Assembly: GCA_902500125.1 (NCBI GenBank)
Contig: GCA_902500125.1_4132.1
Direction: 5' to 3' (one strand)
Length of the DNA: 64,000 bases
DNA from: Escherichia coli
Lineage (GTDB): Bacteria; Pseudomonadota; Gammaproteobacteria; Enterobacterales; Enterobacteriaceae
Part shown: piece after piece, positions 35,990 to 51,640 of the stretch
How positions within the stretch are numbered: the stretch's first letter is position 1
Layout: the number at the start of each line of letters is the position of its first letter
Notes under the pieces: model-generated
The model's input: only the letters and a program-made list of their open reading frames with translations
Databases searched by the model: none
What the model was told of the DNA's origin: nothing
Translations under genes and position numbers: made by a program

Positions 35990-36021
35990 ACTTACATCAA
36001 CTACTGAATGAGGGTTACAAA

Positions 36022-36633
36022 ATGAAAACTATCACTACTACTACTTTTGTTATGGCTTTTTCTGAACTGAACGCAGAACAAAAAACGGCGGCTATCGAAC
36101 TGGTTCGGGATCGTGAGCGTTCATGTGAGGATAATTTCTTTGCTGAGGGCGTTATCGAGTACTATAAAGAAACAGTACTACCAGAATACGGCATAGATGA
36201 AGCTGAATTGCAATACAGTGGTTTTTGGTCGCAAGGTGACGGTGCATCAATCAGTACTAACCACGTTGACGCTGAGAAGTTTTTACGCAAGGTTAAGGCG
36301 TTAACGAAATATCGTTCAATCCGTCACCTGTTGAACGAGGATGATTTAGAAATGAGTGTAGAACGTTTCCAATCACGCTACGCACACGAAAACACGGTAG
36401 GCGGTTGCGTTGATACTCGCTACACTGATTTAACTGTAAAACAGGCGGCATTGGCTGAGGATCTGGAAAACTTACTGACTGATGCGATCCGTGAATTATC
36501 TCGTAAGTTGTACCGTGATTTAGAGAATGCATATGAGGATCAATTCACTACTGAAAACATTACTGCACTGATTGAGGGTAACGAATATCAATTCAATGTT
36601 ATTGATGGCGTAGTGGAATCAATCGAATATTAA
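36022..36633 (+). CDS. acidic hypothetical protein (203 aa)
   Basis: ORF track; RBS TGAGGGTTACAAAATG. Confidence 0.65.
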   Translation: MKTITTTTFVMAFSELNAEQKTAAIELVRDRERSCEDNFFAEGVIEYYKETVLPEYGIDEAELQYSGFWSQGDGASISTNHVDAEKFLRKVKALTKYRSIRHLLNEDDLEMSVERFQSRYAHENTVGGCVDTRYTDLTVKQAALAEDLENLLTDAIRELSRKLYRDLENAYEDQFTTENITALIEGNEYQFNVIDGVVESIEY

Positions 36634-36645
36634 TTTAAAAAGTAC

Positions 36646-36704
36646 TTGTAAACTAAGTTTAAAAGCGTATAATACTTTACATCAAGGCGGGGAGTGGTTC
36701 CCCG
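36646..36704 (+). promoter_or_regulatory. early cassette promoter + leader hairpin CGGGGAGTGGTTCCCCG
   Basis: TTGTAA-N16-TATAAT. Confidence 0.6.
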
Positions 36705-36723
36705 CTCAAACGAGGATTTAAAA

Positions 36724-36963
36724 ATGGCTAGTACTAAAACTTACAACGGACACAAAAACAAAACTCATTGGAATGTAAGCCTTTGGATTAATAACGGTGA
36801 GTCATTGTATCGGCTTGCTCAAAGTTGCATCGCACAAAGTAGAACTAAAGATATTGCTGCGGAATGTATGTACCGCAGATTAAAAGCCAACGGTACTACT
36901 ACAACGCCGGACGGCTTTAAGTATAGCACTACTGCGATCCGTGCTGCAATGGTTGGAATGTAA
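36724..36963 (+). CDS. hypothetical early protein (79 aa); paralog of 34682
   Basis: RBS ACGAGGATTTAAAAATG. Confidence 0.6.
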   Translation: MASTKTYNGHKNKTHWNVSLWINNGESLYRLAQSCIAQSRTKDIAAECMYRRLKANGTTTTPDGFKYSTTAIRAAMVGM

Positions 36964-37020
36964 TATTCAGTACTGAGATAATGGCGGGTAATAGTTCCCG
37001 CCTTTACTGAGGGTTATCTA

Positions 37021-37281
37021 ATGAGTAAAGTAATTAGCTATACAGCACTAAGCAAGTCATTATCTATTAGCCAGTGCACCGATGGTTATTGGCTTTATGA
37101 TGAAACGCGTGGAATGAATTTAGCTATGCGTGCAAAAACTGCTGAGGCGGCGTATCTTGAGGCACTGGAATACTACCAGGAACGTTTAACGGAAGTAGAA
37201 GAAGATTATAAAAGCCTCAAAGCGAAAGTAGATCATTTCGTCGGTCAATTCATCGAGGAAGACGACGATAAACAATACTGA
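37021..37281 (+). CDS. hypothetical protein (86 aa)
   Basis: Preceded by hairpin GGCGGGTAATAGTTCCCGCC and RBS TGAGGGTTATCTAATG. Confidence 0.55.
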   Translation: MSKVISYTALSKSLSISQCTDGYWLYDETRGMNLAMRAKTAEAAYLEALEYYQERLTEVEEDYKSLKAKVDHFVGQFIEEDDDKQY

Positions 37282-37291
37282 AAAAAAGTAC

Positions 37292-37350
37292 TTGCAATTA
37301 GTTTTCAGTACTGTATAATGGTTTACATCAAAGGGAGAAATGGTTCTCCC
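37292..37350 (+). promoter_or_regulatory. early cassette promoter + leader hairpin GGGAGAAATGGTTCTCCC
   Basis: TTGCAA-N16-TGTATAAT (extended -10). Confidence 0.65.
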
Positions 37351-37369
37351 TGGTAATGAGGAAAATAAA

Positions 37370-37591
37370 ATGGCTAATATCACTACTCTTTCCCAACTGG
37401 AAGCACTGGTGAAATCTATGCGGGAACATGCCGACAAAATCGGCGTACAAGATCCAGCCGTTTGCTTCTGCGACGAATTGAATGATGATACCCTGGTAAT
37501 AGCAGAAGTCCAGGACGTTTCTAACTATTCATCGCGTTACACTGGCGGCGTAGCAAATAAAGGCGACTTCTGTTTATACCTTACAAAATAA
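37370..37591 (+). CDS. hypothetical early protein (73 aa)
   Basis: RBS TGAGGAAAATAAAATG after the hairpin. Confidence 0.55.
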   Translation: MANITTLSQLEALVKSMREHADKIGVQDPAVCFCDELNDDTLVIAEVQDVSNYSSRYTGGVANKGDFCLYLTK

Positions 37592-37595
37592 CAAC

Positions 37596-37626
37596 GCGGG
37601 GAGATAATAACTCCCCGTTACTTTTT
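37596..37626 (+). terminator. rho-independent terminator (CGGGGAG-ATAATAA-CTCCCCG + T-tract)
   Basis: Hairpin followed by TTACTTTTT. Confidence 0.65.
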
Positions 37627-37768
37627 CAGTACTGAATCATTTAATAGACGGATCTCGGCACCCGGTGGGTTAGTGACTGTTTCGTCTTGATGTAGTAATT
37701 ATGCCAGTACTGGATGCACTTGTCAACAACTATTTTTCAAATACTTTTTATTAAAATACTTGCAATTA

Positions 37769-37825
37769 GTTTTTAAACGCGTATAATGTTTTGCATAGGG
37801 GGAGCGGTTCCCCCTGGTAACTAAG
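37769..37825 (+). promoter_or_regulatory. early cassette promoter + leader hairpin GGGGGAGCGGTTCCCCC
   Basis: TTGCAA-N16-TATAAT. Confidence 0.6.
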
Positions 37826-37835
37826 GAATAATAAA

Positions 37836-38072
37836 ATGCTTGAACAAATCAAATCAACGACTTCGAATGTAACGGGAACGGTAGCACACTTTACTAGTGA
37901 TGAATCGCGGGGCGTACCCTATTGTGCTGTACATGTAAACACTGATGGCAACTACTGGTTTACTGTTTACGGATCATATTCCTTTGGACGACCAGGGCAT
38001 CAAAAAATTCTGGATAAAGTACAGCCAACGGGTAAAAATATCACTGCTGAAATGTTTTATAAAAAATCATAA
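37836..38072 (+). CDS. hypothetical early protein (78 aa)
   Basis: RBS CTAAGGAATAATAAAATG. Confidence 0.6.
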   Translation: MLEQIKSTTSNVTGTVAHFTSDESRGVPYCAVHVNTDGNYWFTVYGSYSFGRPGHQKILDKVQPTGKNITAEMFYKKS

Positions 38073-38077
38073 AGTAC

Positions 38078-38136
38078 TTGATAATAGTTTTTAGTACTGT
38101 ATAATATTTTACATCGCAAGGGGGAGCGGTTCCCCC
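38078..38136 (+). promoter_or_regulatory. early cassette promoter (TTGATA-N16-TGTATAAT) + leader hairpin GGGGGAGCGGTTCCCCC
   Basis: Same hairpin sequence as the preceding cassette. Confidence 0.6.
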
Positions 38137-39944: not shown

Positions 39945-40005
39945 TTGCAAAGTAAGTTGGATAAAGTATAATACATTACATCAAGGGGAGAAAATGGTTC
40001 TCCCC
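39945..40005 (+). promoter_or_regulatory. early cassette promoter + leader hairpin GGGGAGAAAATGGTTCTCCCC
   Basis: TTGCAA-N16-TATAAT. Confidence 0.6.
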
Positions 40006-40023
40006 ACTAAGAGGAAACTAAAA

Positions 40024-40167
40024 ATGAAAACTTGTCAATGTGGTAAAAAATCTATTACTGGTTTGAAACGGGGCGTTGCTCTTTGTCAGTATCACTATAA
40101 CGCTCAGGTATGGGGTAAAGAGTGGGCCGACCAGGTGGAAGCAGTAAAGAAAGCAAAAAGTAAGTAA
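40024..40167 (+). CDS. small Cys-rich protein (47 aa, CQCG...CQYH zinc-ribbon-like)
   Basis: RBS AAGAGGAAACTAAAAATG; the antisense ORF 40018..40227 was rejected. Confidence 0.45.
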   Translation: MKTCQCGKKSITGLKRGVALCQYHYNAQVWGKEWADQVEAVKKAKSK

Positions 40168-40186
40168 AATTATTATCACAGTACTA

Positions 40187-40215
40187 TTGACATAGATTGA
40201 TAGTACTGGCATAAT
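40187..40215 (+). promoter_or_regulatory. class-2 promoter AGTACTATTGACATAGATTGATAGTACTGGCATAAT (flanking inverted AGTACTAT/ATAGTACT)
   Basis: TTGACA-N17-CATAAT; same block at 40481, 43338 and 50987. Confidence 0.55.
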
Positions 40216-40248
40216 AGATTTTATCAAGACAACTAAGAGGAAACAATA

Positions 40249-40461
40249 ATGGCTATCATCACAAAAATCAAAGTAAACAAATCACTGGTTAAGCTGGAAG
40301 AAGTGAAAGAAGGTTATAAAGTATCGTGGTGCGGCATGTATCGGATTTTTACAGATGTTGACGATGCAATCAATTACTACACTGACACGGTAAAAAACTT
40401 TGTTCGTGCTGATGTGGTTATGGCAGTGGCAACACACAAAGCATCGAAAGAAAGTAAGTAA
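40249..40461 (+). CDS. hypothetical early protein (70 aa)
   Basis: RBS CTAAGAGGAAACAATAATG. Confidence 0.6.
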   Translation: MAIITKIKVNKSLVKLEEVKEGYKVSWCGMYRIFTDVDDAINYYTDTVKNFVRADVVMAVATHKASKESK

Positions 40462-40480
40462 AAATATTATCACAGTACTA

Positions 40481-40509
40481 TTGACATAGTTTGATAGTAC
40501 TGGCATAAT
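40481..40509 (+). promoter_or_regulatory. class-2 promoter (duplicate of 40187 block)
   Basis: About 80 bp duplicated almost exactly, including the downstream RBS region. Confidence 0.55.
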
Positions 40510-40542
40510 AGATTTTATCAAGACAACTAAGAGGAAATTAAA

Positions 40543-40887
40543 ATGGCTAATATCAACACTATCGCAAAACAAAATATCAACCTGTCTTCTGTTGAAGTTG
40601 TACATATTGCCGCTCGGCGTTGGTTCCAGGCTTCATATGGTAACACTTATTTCTCTTTAAGTGTAGACGTAGAAATTGATGGTAATTTTATTGAAGTAGT
40701 AAACGTGCCGTTCCAATATGGATACGGGGATCACTTTGACACTGTAGCAATGGAAGAATTTAGCAAGGTTATTAATATGGAAGATAAAGAGTTTTTACGC
40801 GGTTCTTATCTTTCCCGTTTTTGCCGTGACAATAATATCACTGTTTACAGTTCGGTAACTGATGTTAAACGCAAAAAAGATCTTTAA
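40543..40887 (+). CDS. hypothetical early protein (114 aa); paralog of 46523..46846
   Basis: Shared NTY..S and C-terminal VKRKKD[LM]. Confidence 0.6.
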   Translation: MANINTIAKQNINLSSVEVVHIAARRWFQASYGNTYFSLSVDVEIDGNFIEVVNVPFQYGYGDHFDTVAMEEFSKVINMEDKEFLRGSYLSRFCRDNNITVYSSVTDVKRKKDL

Positions 40888-40967
40888 TTAGCTTTACTTT
40901 ATGCAGATACTTTGATATAGTGTCTGCATAGGGGAAAGAAATTAAATTAACTTAAGAGGATCGTATA

Positions 40968-41237
40968 ATGAAAAATATCAGTACTTTAATCGATGCAGGT
41001 ACACATGTTCGGCGGTCTATGGTTGCAACCAGTACTACAAAACAAGTAGCGAGCGGTTATCTTGTATTTGTGCACGATGGTAAACTCCTGGAACGTTCAA
41101 TCAATTTTGATGTTAAAAACAATTGCCGTTTTATTATCTTTCGCCGTGAACAATATAAGATCGACATTCCAGCGAAGCCCATTAGCGGTGCGTACAATGT
41201 GCAATCATTGTTTGAGCGTCAACCATACACCTATTAA
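40968..41237 (+). CDS. hypothetical protein (89 aa)
   Basis: RBS TAAGAGGATCGTATAATG. Confidence 0.55.
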   Translation: MKNISTLIDAGTHVRRSMVATSTTKQVASGYLVFVHDGKLLERSINFDVKNNCRFIIFRREQYKIDIPAKPISGAYNVQSLFERQPYTY

Positions 41238-41288
41238 TCAAAACATCGTTAGCGGTCGATTCAGGCCGCTTATATTGGGGATTATACC

Positions 41289-41561
41289 ATGAACGTTAAT
41301 CAAGTACTGAATGAGATCGAAAGCATCATTAAACCGATGAAGCGTACTGATGCTATGTTAACACCGGAAGAATGCCGCCTTTATGAGCGTTACAGCGTCG
41401 AACAAGTCCAGGCAATGGCTATGGCTACCCCAGCCGTTAAACCGCCTGAGAATGCGTTACAGGACGTTACAGGGGATTATATCATCAATCCAGTACTAGG
41501 GAAGATGGCTGCAATCACCGAAGATCAACAAGACTACTTAAGCCAGTACTTAAAAGGTTAA
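41289..41561 (+). CDS. hypothetical protein (90 aa)
   Basis: ORF track; RBS TGGGGATTATACCATG. Confidence 0.55.
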   Translation: MNVNQVLNEIESIIKPMKRTDAMLTPEECRLYERYSVEQVQAMAMATPAVKPPENALQDVTGDYIINPVLGKMAAITEDQQDYLSQYLKG

Positions 41562-41566
41562 TTAAT

Positions 41567-41776
41567 ATGCTTACTGTACAGGATAAGATCGACATCTTAA
41601 AGGTTAATATGTATGTGATTGATGCCGTACCTGGTAAAGTATTTGCATACGATGACACTACTGTAAGCGATTTCTACTATAGCCAGGCCGTGGGGGATCT
41701 TTCTGTACAGTCGGTTATTGAAAACGTAGTTAATGCAGCGTATGAGCATTTACTTTCAAATAGTACTTGCAATTAG
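41567..41776 (+). CDS. hypothetical protein (69 aa)
   Basis: ORF track; its 3' end overlaps the next promoter. Confidence 0.5.
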   Translation: MLTVQDKIDILKVNMYVIDAVPGKVFAYDDTTVSDFYYSQAVGDLSVQSVIENVVNAAYEHLLSNSTCN

Positions 41777-41826
41777 TTTTTAAACGCGTATAATGTTTTA
41801 CATGAAGGGGAGAAATGATTCTCCCC
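41767..41826 (+). promoter_or_regulatory. early cassette promoter + leader hairpin GGGGAGAAATGATTCTCCCC
   Basis: TTGCAA-N16-TATAAT. Confidence 0.6.
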
Positions 41827-41845
41827 ACTAATTAAGGAATATGAA

Positions 41846-41992
41846 ATGAAAGCATCAAAAAAGAGTAATACTAAGAAAGCACGTTCACCTTTCGCTGGGG
41901 TATTCCCTTTACGTTTCGTTGATGAAGTAGTTTCCTACCCGCCGGGCCTTACTCCTGAGATGGTAGAAAGTTTGCGTAAATCTAAAAAATAG
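41846..41992 (+). CDS. small basic protein (48 aa)
   Basis: RBS TTAAGGAATATGAAATG; below the track cutoff. Confidence 0.4.
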   Translation: MKASKKSNTKKARSPFAGVFPLRFVDEVVSYPPGLTPEMVESLRKSKK

Positions 41993-41995
41993 TAC

Positions 41996-42055
41996 TTGCA
42001 ATTAGTTTTTAGTACTGTATAATAGTTTACATGAAGGGGAGAAATGATTCTCCCC
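41996..42055 (+). promoter_or_regulatory. early cassette promoter + leader hairpin GGGGAGAAATGATTCTCCCC
   Basis: TTGCAA-N16-TGTATAAT; hairpin identical to the previous cassette. Confidence 0.6.
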
Positions 42056-42073
42056 AATAACAGGAGAAACAAA

Positions 42074-42226
42074 ATGAAACAATACAACGCTCGGTTTGAT
42101 GTTACTATCGGTAACGGCAAAGGTCAATTCTCTTTCAGTACTCGCAAAAGTTATACAGAAAACTTCCTGCGTAATTGTGCACTGACCGCCGCTCAAATTA
42201 AACATTATTTTCAGGCTAAAAAATGA
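42074..42226 (+). CDS. small hypothetical protein (50 aa)
   Basis: RBS ACAGGAGAAACAAAATG. Confidence 0.5.
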   Translation: MKQYNARFDVTIGNGKGQFSFSTRKSYTENFLRNCALTAAQIKHYFQAKK

Positions 42227-42312
42227 AATCATTAGCTTATTACAGTTCAGCGGTGATCGGTGCATTGATCGCGGCATTGTTAGTAACCTATCTATTCTTT
42301 ATGGTGATTTAA
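42223..42312 (+). CDS. 29-aa hydrophobic peptide
   Basis: ATGA-coupled; MKSLAYYSSAVIGALIAALLVTYLFFMVI. Confidence 0.3.
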   Translation: MKSLAYYSSAVIGALIAALLVTYLFFMVI

Positions 42313-42453
42313 ATGAATCCTAACGGTTTAATTTACAGTACTCCTAAAACGAAAGCAGATAAAGCGAAAGCACGTAAAGCGAAAGTAAAGGAGTACATTA
42401 AGCAAGGCATGACGCGAAAGGCCGCACTACTCAGAGTAAAGGCTGAAAAATAA
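42313..42453 (+). CDS. 46-aa basic peptide
   Basis: Starts right after the upstream stop; K/R-rich. Confidence 0.3.
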   Translation: MNPNGLIYSTPKTKADKAKARKAKVKEYIKQGMTRKAALLRVKAEK

Positions 42454-42461
42454 TTGAAAAA

Positions 42462-42492
42462 AGGGTTGACTCCGGTCAGTCCCTTTGCTATT
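42462..42492 (+). terminator. class T2 terminator/promoter element (AGGGTTGAC-TCCG-GTCAGTCCCTTTGCTATTAT)
   Basis: Hairpin followed by TTTG; TTGACT within the stem lies 17 nt from TATTAT. Confidence 0.65.
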
Positions 42493-42588
42493 ATATATAC
42501 ATACCAGCGATACACTGGCGGCCCATAGGGTGCACAAATGTATCTATTATATAAGTATTGAGTACTGAAAACTATTTTTAAAAAGTAC

Positions 42589-42647
42589 TTGCAAACTATC
42601 TCAATAAGCGTATAATGTTTTACATCGAAAGGGGAAACGGTTTCCCC
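42589..42647 (+). promoter_or_regulatory. early cassette promoter + leader hairpin GGGGAAACGGTTTCCCC
   Basis: TTGCAA-N16-TATAAT; preceded by intergenic element A. Confidence 0.6.
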
Positions 42648-42667
42648 TGGTAATAAGGAAACAAATC

Positions 42668-43009
42668 ATGACTATCTCAATTGCTCAATCTAACTTTGAA
42701 AATGAAATCATCGCCCAGGCACTGCGTTTAAATGATGGTCGGGCCGAAATTAATTACGGTTTCAATTCAGGCGGTTGTGAAAAATATCAGTACTTTGTAA
42801 CGGCTGATGGCGGTGTCCTGGGTATCAATACAGTTATTGTAAACATCCAAAAAATTAATTTCAATGATCCAGACGATAGCCAGTTTTACATCACGGGCGT
42901 AGACGTGAACTATGAGGATGACTCACTAACTGATGACTACACTGGTGAAACGTTAGAAAGTGCATACTGTGAAGATGATTATCAGTCCGGTCCAGAAGAT
43001 TTCGAATAA
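42668..43009 (+). CDS. acidic hypothetical protein (113 aa)
   Basis: RBS TAAGGAAACAAATCATG. Confidence 0.6.
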   Translation: MTISIAQSNFENEIIAQALRLNDGRAEINYGFNSGGCEKYQYFVTADGGVLGINTVIVNIQKINFNDPDDSQFYITGVDVNYEDDSLTDDYTGETLESAYCEDDYQSGPEDFE

Positions 43010-43024
43010 TATAAAAAAATAGTT

Positions 43025-43084
43025 TGACAATAGATTATAGTACTGTATAATAGTTTACATCAAGGGGAGAAAAACTTCTCCCCA
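43025..43084 (+). promoter_or_regulatory. early cassette promoter (TTGACA-N16-TGTATAAT) + hairpin GGGGAGAAAAACTTCTCCCC
   Basis: Consensus-like promoter. Confidence 0.65.
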
Positions 43085-43105
43085 CTAACAGAGAGAGAAA
43101 ACAAA

Positions 43106-43318
43106 ATGGCTAATATCTGCACTGTACTGAAAAATGCAAAACAAGTTTTATTTTCTGATCACGATCATTTAAACAAGGATATTACTGGCGTTCGGAATAT
43201 CAAAGATGTAAAAAGTGTTATGGGTATCTATTGCAATATGAAACGTGTTGGAACGTTCGGCGACAAAGTACTATACCAGGCAGGGGATTACAATTTTACA
43301 CTGACTATCATTAACTAA
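43106..43318 (+). CDS. hypothetical early protein (70 aa)
   Basis: RBS AGAGAGAGAAAACAAAATG. Confidence 0.55.
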   Translation: MANICTVLKNAKQVLFSDHDHLNKDITGVRNIKDVKSVMGIYCNMKRVGTFGDKVLYQAGDYNFTLTIIN

Positions 43319-43337
43319 AAATATATTACCAGTACTA

Positions 43338-43365
43338 TTGACATAGTTTGATAGTACTGTATAAT
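43338..43365 (+). promoter_or_regulatory. class-2 promoter (AGTACTATTGACATAGTTTGATAGTACTGTATAAT)
   Basis: TTGACA-N16-TGTATAAT. Confidence 0.55.
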
Positions 43366-43409
43366 AAGTTTTATAAACAGTAGTTAACTTAACCTAAGAG
43401 AGAAATAAA

Positions 43410-43553
43410 ATGATCGCACTGGATTCATTCATCGACGCAGTACTGGCAAAAACTGGCGAGGATCTGACCGCAGAACAATACGCGATGATCGAGCAATGTC
43501 AGCAAGACGGTAAATCGGTGAAAGATACTGTTAAGATTATCCGCAAGATGTAA
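43410..43553 (+). CDS. small acidic protein (47 aa)
   Basis: RBS TAAGAGAGAAATAAAATG; below the track cutoff. Confidence 0.4.
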   Translation: MIALDSFIDAVLAKTGEDLTAEQYAMIEQCQQDGKSVKDTVKIIRKM

Positions 43554-43560
43554 TATTATA

Positions 43561-43590
43561 GCCCACTGGTCAACGCTGGTGGGCTTTAAT
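43561..43590 (+). terminator. terminator-like hairpin AGCCCACTGG-TCAACG-CTGGTGGGCT
   Basis: 10-bp stem; weak T-tract (TTTAATCC). Confidence 0.45.
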
Positions 43591-43652
43591 CCTTTACCCT
43601 ATACAATGCCAGTACTAAACCGTTTATCTCGTTAGAATGCGTTACAGGACGT

Positions 43653-43856
43653 TTGACAATGATTAGCATGAAATCAGTACAAAAACAAATAGAAACATTA
43701 TCAAAAATTAAACGTAAACAGTACTCGTTAGAATATACAATCAATGGTAACTATCATCTAATGAAAGAGAATAATTTTATTGTCATTGATGAATCATTGC
43801 AAATCATTAGTATAGTACTGAAAGCATTAATCAATGACAGAAAAAAATTAAAATAA
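43653..43856 (+). CDS. hypothetical protein (67 aa)
   Basis: ORF track; weak RBS; AT-rich. Confidence 0.35.
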   Translation: MTMISMKSVQKQIETLSKIKRKQYSLEYTINGNYHLMKENNFIVIDESLQIISIVLKALINDRKKLK

Positions 43857-43860
43857 TCTA

Positions 43861-43889
43861 TTGACAATATCATCCAGTACTGGCATAAT
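43861..43889 (+). promoter_or_regulatory. promoter TTGACA-N17-CATAAT with ~295-nt leader
   Basis: TTGACAATATCATCCAGTACTGGCATAAT; the leader holds element A and a cluster of GATCAA/TGATCA motifs. Confidence 0.55.
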
Positions 43890-44185
43890 ACTTACATCAA
43901 GACGAGAACGTCACTAACCCATAGGGTGCACAAATGTAACTATATAATATCGATCAATAAATGATCAAAAAAGTACTGGATCAATTTAACATAAGGAGTA
44001 TAATTCTGATCAATTCTTGATCAAAGGCAATATACGCAGTTGAATTTATATAGACATTACAAAGGCGTTACTATCCGTGGTAATGCTGGTGGATATGTAG
44101 TATCATATGGTTTGAATAAGATTAGCACTAGTAGTATTATTGTAGCATTACAGTACTATAGTATTTTTATAATGAGGTTAAAATA

Positions 44186-44443
44186 ATGGCAGTAGGATAC
44201 GCGAAAGACGGGGCCGAACAAGACGAGATTCACGCAGTGATTCAGGCCGCCGTTAACCACGCTAGAAAGCAAATTAACGCACAAAGAGAATCACTGGTAC
44301 ATTGCCTCGACTGCGGCGATAAAATCCCTGAGAATCGACGCCAGGCCGTTATAGGGTGCATGTATTGTATTACTTGCCAGGAGGATCATGATAGTACTTT
44401 TAAAAGAGATCCGCGTAATTGTTGGCATAGATCTATGAGATAA
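44186..44443 (+). CDS. DksA/TraR-family C4 zinc-finger protein
   Basis: HCLDCGDKIPENRRQAVIGCMYCITCQ (C-x2-C...C-x2-C with a P-x-x-RR motif); RBS TGAGGTTAAAATAATG. Confidence 0.75.
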   Translation: MAVGYAKDGAEQDEIHAVIQAAVNHARKQINAQRESLVHCLDCGDKIPENRRQAVIGCMYCITCQEDHDSTFKRDPRNCWHRSMR

Positions 44444-44450
44444 AAAGTAA

Positions 44451-44478
44451 TTGACAGTACTGAAAGATAGTGTATAAT
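44451..44478 (+). promoter_or_regulatory. promoter TTGACA-N16-TGTATAAT
   Basis: TTGACAGTACTGAAAGATAGTGTATAATG. Confidence 0.6.
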
Positions 44479-44507
44479 GTTTTATATCTTAACTGAGGAT
44501 AGTAATC

Positions 44508-44864
44508 ATGGGAATACAACATATCACGCGTACTACTGACAATGGAGAGATCACTGGTTATCAGGTACAGGGCAAAGTAGCACAATTGCAGTACTGGTTT
44601 GTTAAACGTGGAATCATTGCACCGGATCTTGATTATGACCGTGTAGCGTTTATTGATTCTCTTTATGTTGATCCTGATAGTCGGGGCAATGGTGAAGGTA
44701 ACGAATTAATGAATGCCTTTATCGATGCCGCCGATGATTCAGATTGTATCATCTTAGAATGCGATACGGGAGAAGATAACGCCTTTAATCTTAAAGAATG
44801 GTACGAAGGTTTCGGATTCGAGGTATTGATAGATAGTGAATATCCTATCATGATTTTATCATAG
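44508..44864 (+). CDS. small GNAT-family acetyltransferase-like protein (118 aa)
   Basis: VDPDSRGNGEGNELMNAF (acetyl-CoA motif A-like R/Q-x-x-G-x-G) and ...KEWYEGFGFE; RBS TGAGGATAGTAATCATG. Confidence 0.5.
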   Translation: MGIQHITRTTDNGEITGYQVQGKVAQLQYWFVKRGIIAPDLDYDRVAFIDSLYVDPDSRGNGEGNELMNAFIDAADDSDCIILECDTGEDNAFNLKEWYEGFGFEVLIDSEYPIMILS

Positions 44865-44867
44865 TAC

Positions 44868-44924
44868 TTGCATTTAGTTTTCAGTACTGTTATAGTACTT
44901 GCATCAAGGGGAAACATCTTCCCC
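44868..44924 (+). promoter_or_regulatory. early cassette promoter (TTGCAT...TATAGT) + hairpin GGGGAAACATCTTCCCC
   Basis: -10 non-consensus. Confidence 0.45.
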
Positions 44925-44942
44925 TACTAAGAGGAAATAAAA

Positions 44943-45131
44943 ATGGAAAACTTATCAAGTATTTTAGTACAAGATGATTTCGGTAATCCTGGAAGTGCTA
45001 TCATTGTTCGGGGCAATAAAGCAACGTTTGTTATTGCTGGTGGACCCGTACAGCGTAGCATTAAAAATAATGCTGTTACCATTAATAATGTACGCTATCG
45101 CTTAGATAAAGAATTAATTCATAAACTGTAA
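44943..45131 (+). CDS. hypothetical early protein (62 aa)
   Basis: RBS TAAGAGGAAATAAAAATG. Confidence 0.55.
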   Translation: MENLSSILVQDDFGNPGSAIIVRGNKATFVIAGGPVQRSIKNNAVTINNVRYRLDKELIHKL

Positions 45132-45138
45132 AAAAGTA

Positions 45139-45200
45139 CTGGATAATAGATTATAGTACTGTATAATAGTTTACATGAAGGGGAGAAATGATTCTCCCCA
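45139..45200 (+). promoter_or_regulatory. early cassette promoter (weak -35, TGTATAAT) + hairpin GGGGAGAAATGATTCTCCCC
   Basis: Extended -10; third occurrence of this hairpin sequence. Confidence 0.5.
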
Positions 45201-45216
45201 CTAAGAGGAAAGAAAA

Positions 45217-45429
45217 ATGCAAGGTCAACTAATCGTTCGTAAATGGTCTGATACTAACGAAAAACCGTGGGATGTACAATACATCGCCCCCAATGGTGAA
45301 TCCAGATATCAACCAGGTGTAACGCATAGTACTGAGCAATTCGCCGCCGCTCATCGCGAACGTCTGTTACAATCAATGCAGCAAGGTTTCGGTGAAAAAT
45401 TCATTCAGGATCATTGGCTGAAAGATTAA
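45217..45429 (+). CDS. hypothetical early protein (70 aa)
   Basis: RBS TAAGAGGAAAGAAAAATG. Confidence 0.55.
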   Translation: MQGQLIVRKWSDTNEKPWDVQYIAPNGESRYQPGVTHSTEQFAAAHRERLLQSMQQGFGEKFIQDHWLKD

Positions 45430-45436
45430 AAAGTAC

Positions 45437-45494
45437 TTGCACTGTACTGAATAAAGTGTATAATGTTTTATATCGGAAGGGGAATAGTTCCCCT
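45437..45494 (+). promoter_or_regulatory. early cassette promoter + hairpin GGGGAATAGTTCCCC
   Basis: TTGCAC-N16-TGTATAAT. Confidence 0.6.
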
Positions 45495-45515
45495 CCTAAC
45501 AAAGAGGAAAGTATA

Positions 45516-45689
45516 ATGGTCCAGGTAGAATTAACAGTACTGAAAGATCTGTTTTATCGGATTGGTACTACTGGCGAATATCCGAAGGGTGATAATGCAA
45601 AACTTTACGTATCACTCGACTTATGGCAACGCGAACAATTAGCAACGGCCTGGCGTAAAGGCAAAGCAGATAGCGAGGTGAAAGCATGA
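45516..45689 (+). CDS. small hypothetical protein (57 aa)
   Basis: RBS AAAGAGGAAAGTATAATG after the hairpin. Confidence 0.5.
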   Translation: MVQVELTVLKDLFYRIGTTGEYPKGDNAKLYVSLDLWQREQLATAWRKGKADSEVKA

Positions 45690-45835
45690 AAGAATTCTTA
45701 TTTGAAGTAGTGTTTCAAGGTGTCGGTAGTAACCAACTGATTCGCTCAAGTGGTTATAATGTTAACCAGGCATGGAATAACATTAAACAAATGTACCCGA
45801 ACGCTATCACCTATCGCAACCCGAAAGAAGTTTAA
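45686..45835 (+). CDS. small hypothetical protein (49 aa)
   Basis: ATGA-coupled ORF MKEFLFEVVFQG...; below the track cutoff. Confidence 0.35.
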   Translation: MKEFLFEVVFQGVGSNQLIRSSGYNVNQAWNNIKQMYPNAITYRNPKEV

Positions 45836-45848
45836 AAATAATTGAAAA

Positions 45849-45880
45849 AGGGATTGACTCCGGTCAGTCCCTTTGCTATT
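45849..45880 (+). terminator. class T2 terminator/promoter element
   Basis: AAAAAGGGATTGACTCCGGTCAGTCCCTTTGCTATTATATACGCATAG. Confidence 0.65.
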
Positions 45881-45982
45881 ATATACGCATAGAAACAAAT
45901 TAGCCCACCGGGTGCATAAATGTATCTATTGTTTGCTGGTGGCTAGTACTATCAAGTACTGAAAACTATTTTTAAAAAGTAC

Positions 45983-46010
45983 TTGCATTGTAATTAGAAT
46001 CAAGTATAAT
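45983..46010 (+). promoter_or_regulatory. early promoter (TTGCAT-N16-TATAAT), upstream of tandem pair
   Basis: Part of a ~170-bp block duplicated from 35823-35990. Confidence 0.6.
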
Positions 46011-46020
46011 GTTTTACATC

Positions 46021-46100
46021 AGGACGGGGAACGAAACAAGTAACCCCGTTAAGTAGTCCAGGAGTAAGACATACGAAAAACTCCCCTGATAAAATAGTTT
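46021..46100 (+). ncRNA. structured leader/candidate small RNA (copy 2)
   Basis: Copy of 35881-35960 with stem-compatible substitutions (ACGGGGAACGAAACAAGTAACCCCGTT). Confidence 0.35.
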
Positions 46101-46126
46101 GACAATAGAAAGTAAACGAGTATAAT
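46099..46126 (+). promoter_or_regulatory. promoter TTGACA-N16-TATAAT (downstream of pair)
   Basis: TTGACAATAGAAAGTAAACGAGTATAATAC. Confidence 0.6.
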
Positions 46127-46159
46127 ACTTACATCAACCACTGATAAGGAAACATTAAA

Positions 46160-46435
46160 ATGCGGATTCTACTGACAGCTAACGAAATCGAACAAGTACT
46201 GACTACTAACCTGGAACAATGGAAACGTGATGCAGATATCCAGGCGGTTCAATGGCTTAACGATAAGTTAACGCCGGATGACTTAAGCAAGATTGTAGAT
46301 CCTCAATTCTACGAAGATATTCACGACACGGCTTTAAGCGTCGAGGATGTACTTGATAAGCATTACATTAATACCGATTTACAGGTTTACGGGCGTAAAA
46401 ACTTTATCACTATTCACGACATTTACAATACTTAA
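46160..46435 (+). CDS. hypothetical early protein (91 aa)
   Basis: RBS TAAGGAAACATTAAAATG. Confidence 0.6.
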   Translation: MRILLTANEIEQVLTTNLEQWKRDADIQAVQWLNDKLTPDDLSKIVDPQFYEDIHDTALSVEDVLDKHYINTDLQVYGRKNFITIHDIYNT

Positions 46436-46438
46436 GTA

Positions 46439-46497
46439 TTGACAAAGTATCTTAGTACTGTATAATAGTTTACATCAAGGCGGGGAAATGGTTCCCC
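46439..46497 (+). promoter_or_regulatory. early cassette promoter (TTGACA-N16-TGTATAAT) + hairpin CGGGGAAATGGTTCCCCT
   Basis: Consensus promoter. Confidence 0.65.
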
Positions 46498-46522
46498 TCC
46501 TAACAAAGAGAGAGAAATAAAA

Positions 46523-46846
46523 ATGGCTATGATCCTTACCCAGAAAGTGGAATTGAAAATTGTAACCTCCTTTGACATTAAAGTTAATCGCTGGACTGAT
46601 CGGAACGGCAATACTTACCACTCTTGCTACGTGTCTGCGTTAATTGGCGACCGCTGGGAAGACCTGGGACACGAAACCTTTACATACGGTTACGGTACGC
46701 AAGGCGAATACACTGGTTTGGAGATCATTAAAGAAACCGTTATAGGTTTCAACCCGAAAGAAAAAGTTATGCACCGCATCGAAAAAGAGATTAACAAAGA
46801 AATAACAGTTCGCTACTACGATGTAAAACGTAAGAAAGACATGTAA
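46523..46846 (+). CDS. hypothetical early protein (107 aa); paralog of 40543
   Basis: RBS AGAGAGAGAAATAAAAATG. Confidence 0.6.
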   Translation: MAMILTQKVELKIVTSFDIKVNRWTDRNGNTYHSCYVSALIGDRWEDLGHETFTYGYGTQGEYTGLEIIKETVIGFNPKEKVMHRIEKEINKEITVRYYDVKRKKDM

Positions 46847-46868
46847 TAGAATCCATTTAAAGTACTAT

Positions 46869-46897
46869 TTGACATTGCCCAGATAGTACTTTATAAT
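46869..46897 (+). promoter_or_regulatory. promoter TTGACA-N17-TATAAT
   Basis: TTGACATTGCCCAGATAGTACTTTATAAT. Confidence 0.6.
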
Positions 46898-46941
46898 AGA
46901 CTCTAACTTGTAGTACTAACTCAACTAATAGGATGTATACC

Positions 46942-47337
46942 ATGATTACTAAATTCTACGCTACCCGTGAAGCTGCCCGTATTGTTGCACGCGAGGAAGG
47001 AGCAGCATTTAAAGACATGGGAACGACAGCACCGAAAGGTCAACGCTGGGCCGTACAGTTCAAAGAAATCTCTGATATTGTGAATTCACCTGAGCCAGTA
47101 CTAACAGCAGCAGAACTAAAACGAGCGGATATGCTGGCGGCAATACTTGACGCACAAGATGAGTTTATCGCTGATTCTGATATCAAAGTACAGGTAAACC
47201 ACACCGCATGGACTCACGCGGATCACCTGGCAAACCTTAAGCGTCCAAGTGAACTGATTCGCAACCAGAAAGAGATCCGACATGATCGTAAGGGTAATCG
47301 TGTAACAGTATACAGTAAACGCCGCCAGGTTATCTAA
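46942..47337 (+). CDS. hypothetical protein (~131 aa); paralog of 35010
   Basis: MITKFYATREAARIVAREEGAAFKDMG...DRKGNRVTVY; RBS TAGGATGTATACCATG. Confidence 0.55.
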   Translation: MITKFYATREAARIVAREEGAAFKDMGTTAPKGQRWAVQFKEISDIVNSPEPVLTAAELKRADMLAAILDAQDEFIADSDIKVQVNHTAWTHADHLANLKRPSELIRNQKEIRHDRKGNRVTVYSKRRQVI

Positions 47338-47359
47338 TAACTTGCAGTACTAACAACAC

Positions 47360-47385
47360 GGCGGGATCAGTTCCCGCCTTTTTTA
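47360..47385 (+). terminator. rho-independent terminator (GGCGGGA-TCAG-TTCCCGCC + T6)
   Basis: Hairpin followed by TTTTTTA. Confidence 0.7.
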
Positions 47386-47398
47386 TAGGACAAACAAA

Positions 47399-47653
47399 AT
47401 GATTAAGGTTCAACTATATAAAGATAACATCTTACGGGTACACTATAAAGCACCGAAGAGAATCATCACAAAGGCCGTACAGCTTGCTAATGAGTTTATT
47501 AATGGTAACCTATTACCAAGGAAGTTAAGCAACGGGAAACTGCGTGTAATCGACGTGGACACTAACAACAGGATAGTAATCGAGAACACAGGAAAAATAA
47601 ACCTTTATGAGCATCAACAATACAATAAGAAAATAAAACTAATATCACGTTGA
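47399..47653 (+). CDS. hypothetical protein (84 aa)
   Basis: RBS ATAGGACAAACAAAATG. Confidence 0.55.
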   Translation: MIKVQLYKDNILRVHYKAPKRIITKAVQLANEFINGNLLPRKLSNGKLRVIDVDTNNRIVIENTGKINLYEHQQYNKKIKLISR

Positions 47654-47679
47654 CAGTACTCAAATGTTTTAGTATTATG
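47650..47679 (+). promoter_or_regulatory. promoter TTGACA-N18-TATTAT (duplicated block, copy 1)
   Basis: TTGACAGTACTCAAATGTTTTAGTATTATG. Confidence 0.5.
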
Positions 47680-47706
47680 TACACATACCAACACGGGAGA
47701 AACAAA

Positions 47707-47925
47707 ATGAAATTATCTAAAATCGAAAAGAAAACTATTGATGAAGCAGTTAAGCACGGTTATACCTTTCGTAATGATTCACATTTTACCAATTTTCAAC
47801 AGGGGTATCGTACTATTAAAAAACTAATTGACAAAGGTTTATTAGTTGAAGTCAATAATGGGAACGGTATCGAGTATCAGCCAACCCAAGACGCATTATC
47901 TTTAAAGAAATATAATATTATCTAA
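47707..47925 (+). CDS. hypothetical protein (72 aa)
   Basis: RBS ACGGGAGAAACAAAATG. Confidence 0.55.
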   Translation: MKLSKIEKKTIDEAVKHGYTFRNDSHFTNFQQGYRTIKKLIDKGLLVEVNNGNGIEYQPTQDALSLKKYNII

Positions 47926-47953
47926 TTGACAGTACTCAAATGTTTTAGTACTA
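47926..47953 (+). promoter_or_regulatory. promoter (duplicated block, copy 2)
   Basis: TTGACAGTACTCAAATGTTTTAGTACTAT. Confidence 0.45.
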
Positions 47954-47983
47954 TATGTACATACCAACACGGGGAAAAACAAA

Positions 47984-48226
47984 ATGATTACTTTAGAAAA
48001 ACGTATCAAAGAAACTACATCGCTGGTGGAATTGTTAACAGTACTCAAATGTAAAACAACACCATTCAGCACGCCGGACTTTATTAATATGGTTGATGTT
48101 AATGGTCGCTATCGTATCACGGTCGAACAAGGAGCGGCGAAAGTATTCAGTACTAAAAACACGAAGGAAGTGATCCACGCCGTTAATGTTAAAAAAGTAG
48201 TTGCCATTGATAGTAAAGTACTGTAA
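47984..48226 (+). CDS. hypothetical protein (80 aa)
   Basis: RBS ACGGGGAAAAACAAAATG. Confidence 0.55.
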   Translation: MITLEKRIKETTSLVELLTVLKCKTTPFSTPDFINMVDVNGRYRITVEQGAAKVFSTKNTKEVIHAVNVKKVVAIDSKVL

Positions 48227-48257
48227 TATAGTTTCATTAACTCAAGGAGAACATGCA

Positions 48258-48842
48258 ATGCGTAATTATACTAAATTCATCCGTACACTGTCAGAAATGG
48301 AAACCAACAAAGAGATCCTTTCAGCTTGTCGGTTAGCTGGCCTGGAGATCATCGGTGCTGGTTCTTCCCGTATAGTTTTCGCTTTAAATGATCGGTTAGT
48401 GATTAAGGTCGCGAATTGTGATGCGGGTGTAGAACAAAATGAAACTGAATGTAAGGTATGGAATTTTTTAGACTATGACCGCCCTCAGTTGAAACAGTAC
48501 TTTGCAAAGGTGCATATGCATTTATGCGATCCTGATAATATGTTTATCGTTATGGATCGGTTGAGTACTGCAAGCAAAGGTAGTGTGAAGCACGTAAACG
48601 CGTGCAATGAATTAAAGTACAATATTAAACGTAATGCAATCGAACGCCAGCACCGCTTTGCTGATGCACTACAACACGTCGATGATACATTATCAACACT
48701 AACGATAAGAGATATCAGAAAACAGAATATCGGCCAGGATCGTAATGGCCTTATTAAAGTACTTGATTACGGTTTAACCTGCAATATCTGGAATCAGTAC
48801 TATAAAAAGCGTGATGTGGCAGCAAGTAAGGTAACACGATAA
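48258..48842 (+). CDS. small protein-kinase-like protein (~194 aa)
   Basis: RBS AAGGAGAACATGCAATG; IIGAGSSRIVF (G-loop), VIKVA, IRDIRKQNIG (catalytic-loop-like), KVLDYG (DFG-like). Confidence 0.6.
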   Translation: MRNYTKFIRTLSEMETNKEILSACRLAGLEIIGAGSSRIVFALNDRLVIKVANCDAGVEQNETECKVWNFLDYDRPQLKQYFAKVHMHLCDPDNMFIVMDRLSTASKGSVKHVNACNELKYNIKRNAIERQHRFADALQHVDDTLSTLTIRDIRKQNIGQDRNGLIKVLDYGLTCNIWNQYYKKRDVAASKVTR

Positions 48843-48855
48843 AAAAGATTAAAAA

Positions 48856-48890
48856 AGGGATTGACTCCGGTCAGTCCCTTTGCTATTATA
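48856..48890 (+). terminator. class T2 terminator/promoter element
   Basis: AAAAAAGGGATTGACTCCGGTCAGTCCCTTTGCTATTATATA. Confidence 0.65.
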
Positions 48891-48983
48891 TATCCATTGA
48901 GAGATAACTCACTGACCCATAGGGTGCGGAAGTGTATCTATTATATAAGTATTCAGTACTGAAAACTATTTTTTAAAAAGTAC

Positions 48984-49046
48984 TTGCATTGTACTTAGAA
49001 TCAAGTATAATGTTTTATATCGAGAGGGGGAAATGGTTCTCCCTGG
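48984..49046 (+). promoter_or_regulatory. early cassette promoter + hairpin GGGGGAAATGGTTCTCCC
   Basis: TTGCAT-N16-TATAAT; preceded by element A. Confidence 0.6.
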
Positions 49047-49065
49047 TATATTAAGGAATAAAATC

Positions 49066-49287
49066 ATGACTACAATGACTTGCATTTACGCTTCCAATCG
49101 TCTGAATGATGCGGCCTTTAATGTTGATTCAGAATATCAATGTTATCGGGATGAAAATAAAAAAGTTTTTGTAGTTGATAATAATGGTTTCCATATTGAA
49201 TTACAATCCGGCTTCACTGGTGTTGATGGTAAATCAGTATGGGGCGTACAGGATGATAAAGGTACATATCATTTTAAACGTAATTAA
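49066..49287 (+). CDS. hypothetical early protein (73 aa)
   Basis: RBS TTAAGGAATAAAATCATG. Confidence 0.55.
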   Translation: MTTMTCIYASNRLNDAAFNVDSEYQCYRDENKKVFVVDNNGFHIELQSGFTGVDGKSVWGVQDDKGTYHFKRN

Positions 49288-49291
49288 GTAT

Positions 49292-49353
49292 TTGACAAAG
49301 TATCTTAGTACTGTATAATAGTTTACATCAAGGGGAGAATAGTTCTCCCCGAT
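49292..49353 (+). promoter_or_regulatory. early cassette promoter (TTGACA-N16-TGTATAAT) + hairpin GGGGAGAATAGTTCTCCCC
   Basis: Consensus promoter. Confidence 0.65.
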
Positions 49354-49371
49354 ACTAAAAGGAATAAAATC

Positions 49372-49776
49372 ATGACTACTACTAATCTTGCTCGGAATAT
49401 CGCCAACGATAAAAATCATGCTGCAATGGTCGCTGGTTACATTGAAGCTATGCAATTCAGTACTGTACATAATGATAACGGCGATTACCTGGAAGATTAT
49501 GAGTTATCTGATGAAGCACGTCAAGCGGCGGTGATTGCATGTTCTCGCTTCATTGAGAAACACGGTAATGATCTGGAAGTAGTTCGCGGTATGTTTATTG
49601 ATTACGGTTATGAGCAAGCTGGTCATGATCTGTTCCTTACCCGCGAAGGTCACGGAACTGGTTTTTGGGATCGTGGTTTAGGTCACTATGGCGATGTATT
49701 CACGAAGTACTGCGAAGAAATCAACGTTTGCGATCCCTATGTAGGCGATGATAACTTAATCTATATGGGCGAATAA
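49372..49776 (+). CDS. hypothetical early protein (134 aa)
   Basis: RBS AAAAGGAATAAAATCATG. Confidence 0.6.
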   Translation: MTTTNLARNIANDKNHAAMVAGYIEAMQFSTVHNDNGDYLEDYELSDEARQAAVIACSRFIEKHGNDLEVVRGMFIDYGYEQAGHDLFLTREGHGTGFWDRGLGHYGDVFTKYCEEINVCDPYVGDDNLIYMGE

Positions 49777-49782
49777 AAGTAT

Positions 49783-49843
49783 TTGACAAAGTATATCAGT
49801 ACTGTATAATAGTTTACATCAAGGGGAGAATAGTTCTCCCCAA
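49783..49843 (+). promoter_or_regulatory. early cassette promoter (TTGACA-N16-TGTATAAT) + hairpin GGGGAGAATAGTTCTCCCC
   Basis: Near-duplicate of the 49292 cassette. Confidence 0.65.
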
Positions 49844-49863
49844 TACTAAAAGGAAACAAAATT

Positions 49864-50136
49864 ATGTCCAGCTACTCCGCTACTATGATCATTAAAGATA
49901 TGAACGGTAATCCTACTTCTGCTGGTGGATCATTTGGAAATATTAACTTAGATGGGCGGTTATCCATGCAATCAGCCATCGATGCAGCGAAAGAAGTTTT
50001 TAAGAATGAATGTACTGTTAGTAAGCTGGATTATATGGGTTTCGCTATCGAGAAAACTACTCGTTTTGTGAACTACAAAAATCCACTGATGATTGATACT
50101 AACCTGAAAGCTAACGAAGTGGGGTACTTATTATGA
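49864..50136 (+). CDS. hypothetical early protein (90 aa)
   Basis: RBS AAAAGGAAACAAAATTATG. Confidence 0.6.
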   Translation: MSSYSATMIIKDMNGNPTSAGGSFGNINLDGRLSMQSAIDAAKEVFKNECTVSKLDYMGFAIEKTTRFVNYKNPLMIDTNLKANEVGYLL

Positions 50137-51592: not shown

Positions 51593-51608
51593 CAAAAAAG
51601 AATAAAAA

Positions 51609-51640
51609 AGGGATTGACTCCGGTCAGTCCCTTTGCTATT
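51609..51640 (+). terminator. class T2 terminator/promoter element
   Basis: AAAAAGGGATTGACTCCGGTCAGTCCCTTTGCTATTATATACGCATAG. Confidence 0.65.

Follow-up and report, generated by a model that had tools for sequence, protein, structure and literature searches.

Gene content and genomic context

The locus lies in a 64-kb stretch of DNA, referred to below at its full length as the window. It comprises two short genes on the plus strand, preceded by tandem promoters and a group of closely spaced GATC sites. The first gene (44040..44186, 48 aa, TTG start) is annotated in relatives as 121Q gp293 and belongs to the PHROG 38664 family. Its stop codon overlaps the ATG of the second gene (TAATG), an 85-aa TraR/DksA-type C4 zinc-finger gene (44186..44443; PF01258, E-value = 3.7e-9) for which relatives carry the annotation DksA-like zinc-finger protein. 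Judging from this stop/start overlap, the TraR-like gene appears to be placed for translational coupling to gp293.

Compared with 121Q, the gp293 ORF exhibits 1, 1 and 9 substitutions at the first, second and third codon positions, with seven synonymous and three non-synonymous codon changes. The divergent allele of PBECO4 retains the gp293 frame at the same length, starting with GTG, and stops abound in the other two frames. On this sequence evidence, ORF 44040-44186 is a genuine coding gene. Its translation signals consist of the TTG start and a poor Shine-Dalgarno sequence. The original prediction had placed the interval 43890-44185 in a long 5' leader belonging to the TraR-like gene. The interval is no simple leader: it contains both a second promoter and this real 48-aa ORF.

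The 1.4 kb around the cluster exhibits 92-99% identity with the Asteriusvirus jumbo coliphages JNE01, Ecwhy_1, fEgEco12, 121Q and PBECO4, and by sequence similarity the window is identified as an Asteriusvirus jumbo phage of the 121Q/PBECO4 group. Hardly any annotation exists for the early ("host takeover") regions of jumbo phages of the Rak2/121Q type. Phage fEgEco12 possesses direct terminal repeats of 20,993 bp, which are experimentally supported (PMC13070987). Its position 1 aligns to window position 32398, so that the physical left genome end maps at about 32398 and the terminal repeat corresponds to about 32.4-53.1 kb of the window. This puts the GATC cluster some 11.5 kb into the direct terminal repeat, in the early-gene region. 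For a whole-genome background we assembled TH47, an unannotated relative of 352,450 bp.

Several other features of the terminal repeat may be recorded here. The GC skew flips at about 32398, where the physical left end maps. The first 5-6 kb of the repeat (32398-38100) are poor in ORFs, and this stretch harbors convergent promoter pairs (35625 on the plus strand and 35797 on the minus strand) whose short transcripts carry, on both strands, the leader element described below as motif X. No tRNA was found in the leader or elsewhere in the window. Rfam gave no match at the gathering threshold in the window, and the region 43000-45000 exhibited only chance-level matches (E-value of at least 1).

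Promoters and GATCAA sites

The upstream promoter, P1 (43861..43889, plus strand), is an early sigma70-type promoter with TTGACA, a 17-nt spacer and CATAAT with a TG extension. It matches 11 of the 12 consensus positions and is identical in the two main alleles of the locus (A and B, see below). To its left, at the end of the gp292 ORF, lies one copy of a 10-bp direct repeat, TTAAAATAAT (43847..43856, plus strand). The other copy (44177..44186, plus strand) is found at the junction with the TraR start. The transcript from P1 would carry a 5' hairpin, GACG-AGAA-CGTC (43901..43912, plus strand), the stem of which covaries among paralogous copies (GACG/CGTC, AGTC/GACT, CGC/GCG and GCC/GGC).

The hairpin is followed by a 27-nt element that we call motif X, CCCATAGGGTGCACAAATGTAACTATA (43918..43944, plus strand). 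The window has ten copies of it, each within the terminal repeat, at 33524(-), 33740(-), 35679(+), 35747(-), 37669(-), 42522(+), 43918(+), 45904(+), 48916(+) and 51664(+). These define the consensus CCCAYMGGGTGC-N6-GTAWCTAT, and each is located 25-28 nt downstream of a -10 box. Copies of the P1 type are preceded by a 5' hairpin with a covarying stem. Motif X is also conserved in jumbo phages of Klebsiella (Muenster), Cronobacter (GAP32) and Erwinia. Possible roles are a leader RNA element of the nut/put kind or a promoter box specific to the phage.

Downstream of motif X we identified five GATC sites, starting at positions 43952, 43963, 43979, 44008 and 44019, each of which extends to GATCAA. 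The first two form the upstream pair cGATCAAt-aaa-TGATCAAa (43951..43969), direct repeats 11 bp apart at offsets of +34 and +45 from motif X. This pair is found in all Asteriusvirus alleles that carry the region and in every Erwinia-type locus examined. The third GATC is contained in the putative -35 element of a second promoter, P2 (TGGATC, 43977..43982, plus strand), which is followed after a 16-nt spacer by a TATAAT -10 element (43999..44004, plus strand) and a predicted start at about 44010. The last two sites constitute a 17-bp perfect palindrome, TGATCAA-TTC-TTGATCA (44007..44023), with the core GATCAA-N3-TTGATC, lying over the predicted P2 start. The complete order is P1, 5' hairpin, motif X, GATCAA pair, -35, 16 nt, -10, palindrome, gp293 and TraR. 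The five sites span positions -59 to +14 of the predicted P2, a number and placement in the range of Dam-dependent promoter switches, where at least two such sites are expected.

The -35 element of P2 is weak in this allele. It reads TTGATC in allele B and TTGACT or TTGACA in Erwinia-type loci, with the TTGACT-17-AATAAT of which P2 aligns; the -10 element is kept in alleles A and B and in a natural A/B chimera. Neighbouring early intergenic regions exhibit the same plan (first promoter, motif X, AAAAAGTAC, TTGCAA or TTGTAA, 16 nt, TATAAT, 5' stem-loop, Shine-Dalgarno sequence, ATG), and P2 was therefore assigned here by homology. Composite terminator-promoter units, AAAAGGGATTGACTCCGGTCAGTCCCTTTGCTATTAT, in which a hairpin contains the -35 element, were observed at 42455-42500, 45843-45888, 48850-48895 and 51603-51648; they are similar to the PeSL cassettes known from T4-type phages (PMC2839356, PMC4122927).

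The interval 43890-44040 contains no ORF of at least 20 aa. An AAGGAG at 43993 was considered as a ribosome-binding site and discarded, being AAGGCG or AAGTAG in relatives and followed by a frame of just five codons. Two antisense promoters using TTGATC as -35 (44024->43997 and 43968->43939) were likewise dropped; the -10 of the former, TATACT, becomes TATACG in 121Q and Turkey3. By-eye comparison with the consensus sequences of IHF (WATCAANNNNTTR), FNR (TTGAT-N4-ATCAA), Fur, OxyR and H-NS (TCGATAAATT) gave none that fits all the sites, the H-NS motif matching at 8 of 10 positions at one site; nor was an OxyR, Lrp or Fur consensus recognised by eye at the cluster.

Density of the GATC sites

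The sequences quoted in the original prediction were all found in the letters at the positions it gave. Its count of at least six hexamers stands for GATCAA and TTGATC taken together, but these six lie on five GATC cores, the TTGATC at 44017 overlapping the last GATCAA site. The TGATCA palindromes that it reported are also present (43962, 44007 and 44018), and all sites contain GATC.

The window contains 138 GATC sites, and after this cluster its next densest 100-bp windows contain three. In TH47 the tetranucleotide is depleted, with 581 occurrences observed against 1243 expected from trinucleotide frequencies in 352,450 bp (ratio 0.47). The cluster is the sole 80-bp window with five GATC sites in TH47, and one other 100-bp window has four. 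Under uniform placement, the genome-wide probability of at least five sites in 80 bp is 0.0055, and none of 60 third-order Markov simulations reached five. Within the terminal repeat GATC is more frequent (87 sites in 20.7 kb, or 4.2 per kb). The density of the cluster nevertheless exceeds the local expectation, with P = 0.024 against the terminal-repeat background and P(>=5) = 0.001 in dinucleotide shuffles of the 183-nt leader, which contained 0.97 sites on average. As to the hexamers, the cluster holds 6 of the 14 GATCAA/TTGATC of the terminal repeat, a result obtained in none of 40,000-50,000 simulations. Part of the GATC excess stems from a 27-nt internal duplication, TATAAT-N3-GATCAAT-N3-TGATCAAA, with copies at 43943 and 43999. 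No other GATCAA cluster hinting at a regulon was found in the 352-kb TH47 genome.

Other short palindromes also exhibit unusual frequencies. GCGC is absent from the 64-kb window and from the 352-kb TH47 genome, where about 172 occurrences are expected; this absence suggests either strong counter-selection of the restriction type or a phage nuclease or modification activity targeting GCGC. The ratio for CCGG in TH47 is 0.61, a depletion as for GATC, and GTAC is enriched (1.37). AGTACT occurs 278 times in the window, especially at 28000-52000, against about 22 expected from base composition, with up to 24-35 copies in 4 kb of the terminal repeat. Promoter spacers (cAGTACTgTATAAT) and UP regions contain it, and two copies bracket the -35 and -10 elements of the promoter of one gp293 lineage, the CBB type described below. 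AGTACT may be a generic counterpart of the GATCAA sites.

Alleles within Asteriusvirus

Two main alleles were recognised. Allele A (this window, 121Q, TH47 and others) has five GATC sites with the palindrome over +1. Allele B (PBECO4, UB and others) has four, all upstream of or in the -35 element, with GATCAA-TAC-TTGATC over the -35 (TTGATC). The allele B leader is about 79% identical to that of allele A, against more than 90% in the flanks. A divergent island (43945-44140), roughly two-thirds identical between the alleles, takes in the array of sites together with two-thirds of gp293 from its N-terminus. Pattern scans of IMG/VR returned only 121Q, and one metagenome scan returned two contigs that carry a natural A/B chimera with three GATC sites and a crossover at GATCAATTT. 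The intact palindrome is missing from this chimera and from locus L056, one of the loci collected in this study.

Three siblings, ph0011, phAPEC6 and UE-S1, are otherwise about 95% identical and possess no sites at all. In these phages a whole 330-bp cassette, from P1 to gp293 and bounded by the 10-bp direct repeats, is missing and gp292 is joined straight to TraR; in ph0011 the end of gp292 runs into GTTAAAATAATG of the TraR start. The cassette is dispensable. This presence/absence polymorphism and the chimeric alleles provide ready-made natural genetic controls.

Homologous loci beyond Asteriusvirus

A BLAST match was obtained in the Erwinia phage Hallingskeid, where the same order of elements is observed: a first promoter, motif X, TTGATCAA-gaaa-TGATCAAA, TTGACT, 17 nt, an AATAAT within the palindrome GATCAATAATTGATC, a Shine-Dalgarno sequence and an ATG. 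The 60-aa gene that follows is a gp293 homologue (tblastn E-value = 1e-6), and the next gene is not TraR-like. In this phage only, an HNH endonuclease gene is inserted directly upstream of the gp293-type regulatory region (positions 114-542 of our locus L045); the other Erwinia-type contigs exhibit a 196-aa ORF at that position.

A profile search yielded ten further members of the gp293 family, the contigs of which were fetched. All seven Erwinia-type loci share the architecture, and their first two sites keep the offset from motif X that is seen in the E. coli phages. Across the seven loci identity is 100% at site 1, 100% at site 2, 98% in the palindrome and 93% at the -35 element, against 37-65% in the linkers and the spacer. 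The AA beyond GATC is conserved as strictly as the GATC core. The proteins of the two groups are only about 35% identical. The position of the 15-bp palindrome GATCAA-N3-TTGATC relative to the promoter varies, with three independent arrangements overlapping +1 in allele A, the -35 in allele B and the -10 in the Erwinia-type loci. In a third lineage, the CBB type (47-49 aa), TTGACA-17-TATAGT is the only promoter, and both motif X and the GATC cluster are missing.

TraR-like genes in other jumbo phages and in T4-like phages exhibit no GATC cluster and are coupled to unrelated upstream ORFs. The cluster thus co-occurs with gp293 homologues and not with TraR, which indicates that the control element belongs to gp293. 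The annotation is corrected accordingly: the element is that of the small gene, not of TraR.

The gp293 protein

The gp293 family consists of ORFan proteins of 47-62 aa that stand alone, and PHROG 38664 has no assigned function. The copy in the window contains six K/R residues and no D/E. The AlphaFold model, built from a 12-sequence alignment, is confident (pLDDT 88.7) and exhibits four beta-strands (residues 3-7, 10-15, 18-23 and 26-30) and a C-terminal helix (33-47), the arrangement of AP2/integrase domains with an antiparallel sheet against a helix, and all 48 residues align to 6sy0_A at 2.1 Å. The fold is accordingly predicted from the model to be closest to AP2/integrase-type DNA-binding domains. 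Such domains are common to integrases of lambdoid phages and proteins of mobile elements (PMC1702500). Many uncharacterised phage proteins of 45-65 aa in BFVD possess a gp293-like fold.

For gp293, Pfam returned no family at an E-value of 0.01 or less, and the PF00847 profile was not matched. Foldseek of the model against the PDB gave nothing significant, a PDB profile search returned only designed beta-propellers, and phmmer against 1.84 billion representatives retrieved, outside the family, only one beta-hairpin repeat protein.

Proposed operator array

Judged by the conservation of its sites, the cluster is a real, conserved cis-regulatory element. The inference of regulated expression in the original prediction is borne out to this extent: the sites are phylogenetically footprinted and the cluster is very probably regulatory. 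We propose that the GATCAA sites are an operator array around the internal sigma70-type promoter P2, which would drive gp293 and the TraR-like gene, and that the binder is a sequence-specific protein, with gp293 as the leading candidate; to this proposal as a whole we give about even chances. The sites lie over elements of the gene's own promoter, they are conserved above the flanking DNA, and they are inherited together with gp293, the CBB type lacking them.

The mechanism may be outlined as follows. P2 would drive gp293 and, via the stop/start overlap, the TraR-like gene. We infer that a protein recognising (T)GATCAA(W) occupies the sites. Bound at the palindrome over +1 (or over the -10 or the -35 in the other types), it would repress P2 and block read-through from P1, and the upstream pair would add cooperativity. 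Were gp293 the binder, the outcome would be negative autoregulation of a weakly translated early operon. Three properties make the protein the leading candidate: its gene adjoins the sites, its sequence is strongly basic, and its predicted fold is AP2/integrase-like. The suggestion of a phage factor, one of several binders named in the original prediction, fares best, and the cluster is non-random and located in non-coding DNA; assignment to the TraR leader does not stand, and a pure Dam/SeqA reading would leave unexplained that the AA flank is as strict as GATC.

Occupancy of the sites may hinge on adenine methylation, by the host Dam or by a methyltransferase of the phage itself. The host E. 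coli is Dam+. TH47 encodes a 174-aa N6-adenine methyltransferase of the PF05869 'Dam' family (E-value = 3.5e-33, with an NPPY motif) on the minus strand at about 48.7 kb from the start of the record. Since every site is a Dam target, GATC is purged elsewhere and this enzyme is present in TH47, methylation-sensitive binding is plausible.

Several observations count against the operator reading. The CBB-type lineage has gp293 without sites, the chimera and L056 lack an intact palindrome, and the -35 of allele A is weak. With no second GATCAA cluster in the 352-kb genome, the binder would have no other clustered target in the phage. The sequence searches with gp293 matched no DNA-binding family, which likewise speaks against the protein as binder.

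If gp293 does bind its own sites, an ORFan family would gain a function and, possibly, a Dam-dependent phage regulator would be found in a genome that purges GATC. The locus offers a concrete candidate circuit for the early region, in which tandem promoters and a conserved, operator-like array of GATCAA sites precede the genes of a tiny conserved protein, predicted to have a DNA-binding fold, and of a TraR/DksA-type modulator of RNA polymerase that would be translated together with it. A bolder version, speculative and quite unlikely, is that the gp293 family represents a new class of miniature AP2/integrase-fold DNA-binding proteins in jumbo phages that read (T)GATCAA, serve a methylation-sensing feedback operator and, early in infection, occupy GATC-rich host targets (oriC, substrates of SeqA and MutH). 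Early takeover, with the co-expressed TraR-like modulator of RNA polymerase, would then be linked to the adenine-methylation state of the host.

Alternative explanations

The main rival is that the five GATC sites are read through their methylation state alone, with no dedicated phage factor. SeqA might act on hemimethylated phased sites after replication, or methylation of the GATCs in the -35 and at +1 might alter the use of P2 by the polymerase, and the gp293-TraR operon would be shut off or timed in this way. GATC is indeed contained in every site, those in the -35 and at +1 of P2 among them, and the spacings of 11, 16, 29 and 11 bp are those of phased pairs no more than 31 bp apart, as suits SeqA. 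GATC is counter-selected throughout the genome, so that five sites kept together would imply a GATC-dependent function. The close relative TH47 encodes the 'Dam' family enzyme, and bacterial promoters with GATC clusters provide precedents (opvAB, PMC4856963; std, PMC6735912; sci1, PMC3145626). However, GATC alone is all that Dam and SeqA need, whereas conservation covers (T)GATCAA(W), with flanks as invariant as the core, and their recognition leaves unaccounted for a palindrome GATCAA-N3-TTGATC that is found at three different promoter positions. Moreover, tblastn found no E. coli- or T4-type Dam in the phage. We consider methylation alone an unlikely explanation.

The repeats might alternatively act in RNA, self-complementary GAUCAA copies in the P1 transcript folding into a long hairpin that controls the stability, processing or translation initiation of gp293. 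For the leader of this allele (43896-44060) the predicted folding energy is -31.4 kcal/mol, with z = -3.4 relative to shuffled sequences. In this fold the two repeat units pair with each other, and 43937-43951 with codons 2-6 of gp293; complementarity between the two arms, 43952-43977 and 43997-44022, is 77%. This structure is not a shared property of the alleles, however. Allele B folds differently (z = -1.5), the long arms are missing from the A/B chimera and from the leaders of the Erwinia type, and compensatory changes were not observed. A transcript from P2 would begin inside the palindrome, and the conserved blocks match promoter elements rather than helices. An RNA-level role appears very unlikely.

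That the cluster has no function at all, and is the by-product of a local duplication of the GATCAAT unit in a fast-evolving intergenic island, is highly improbable. The 27-nt duplicated unit does account for four of the five sites, and the divergent island exhibits site turnover among alleles (5, 4 and 3 sites). But the first two sites keep their motif X offsets between E. coli and Erwinia-type phages despite the divergence of gp293, the sites stay unchanged where the linkers between them are 37-65% identical, and GATC is otherwise selected against in the genome, as seen in TH47.

Finally, a site of DNA metabolism, such as a replication origin like oriC or the oriR of phage P1, or a methylation-controlled packaging site like P1 pac, is hardly credible and was rejected on dispensability and position: dense TGATCA in AT-rich DNA beside a strong promoter inside the terminal repeat would suit it, but the cassette is absent from ph0011, phAPEC6 and UE-S1, sits some 11.5 kb from the physical terminus of the 20,993-bp repeat, exhibits no switch in GC skew and is always tied to one small gene.

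Comparison with known systems

P1 pac uses TGATCA/G hexamers, and the cluster resembles both this site and the oriC/SeqA clusters in its high local density of TGATCA and GATC and in its helical phasing. Unlike those sites, it is dispensable, lies in the interior of the terminal repeat and accompanies a single small gene.

As a mobile unit, the cassette recalls the PeSL cassettes of T4-type phages (PMC2839356, PMC4122927). Both are modules with an early promoter and a small ORFan that some close relatives have and others lack, and both lie where promoter/terminator composites recur many times. In contrast to PeSLs, the indel here is bounded by the 10-bp TTAAAATAAT repeat at ORF ends and not by a stem-loop. 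By analogy, PeSLs may account for the movement of the cassette, and would not account for the function of the GATCAA sites.

The AP2/integrase domains (plant ERF, ApiAP2 and the arm-binding domain of lambda Int; PMC1702500) differ from gp293 in that the latter exhibits no PF00847 sequence match, has only 47-62 aa and stands alone.

A further group is formed by the Dam-factor switches, pap, agn43, opvAB (PMC4856963), std (PMC6735912) and sci1 (PMC3145626), which employ the host factors OxyR, Lrp, HdfR and Fur and produce heritable ON/OFF lineages. They share with this locus several GATC sites inside candidate protein-binding sites of a promoter, and by analogy methylation and factor binding could be mutually exclusive here as well. 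Unlike them, the present promoter is an early promoter of a lytic jumbo phage at which no host-factor consensus was recognised by eye, and the conserved motif is GATCAA itself rather than a host box that happens to hold GATC.

Lastly, there are the autoregulated small repressors with operator arrays over their own promoters, such as Arc and Mnt of P22, Cro of lambda and CopG of plasmids. In contrast to these, gp293 is only a candidate binder and is predicted to be a beta-sheet plus helix (AP2/integrase-like) instead of a ribbon-helix-helix or helix-turn-helix; furthermore, the half-site contains a Dam target, and one gp293 lineage has no sites. In common with Arc/Mnt, Cro and CopG, the locus encodes a tiny protein directly downstream of a promoter overlapped by a short palindrome with extra repeats, and the sites and the gene are inherited together.
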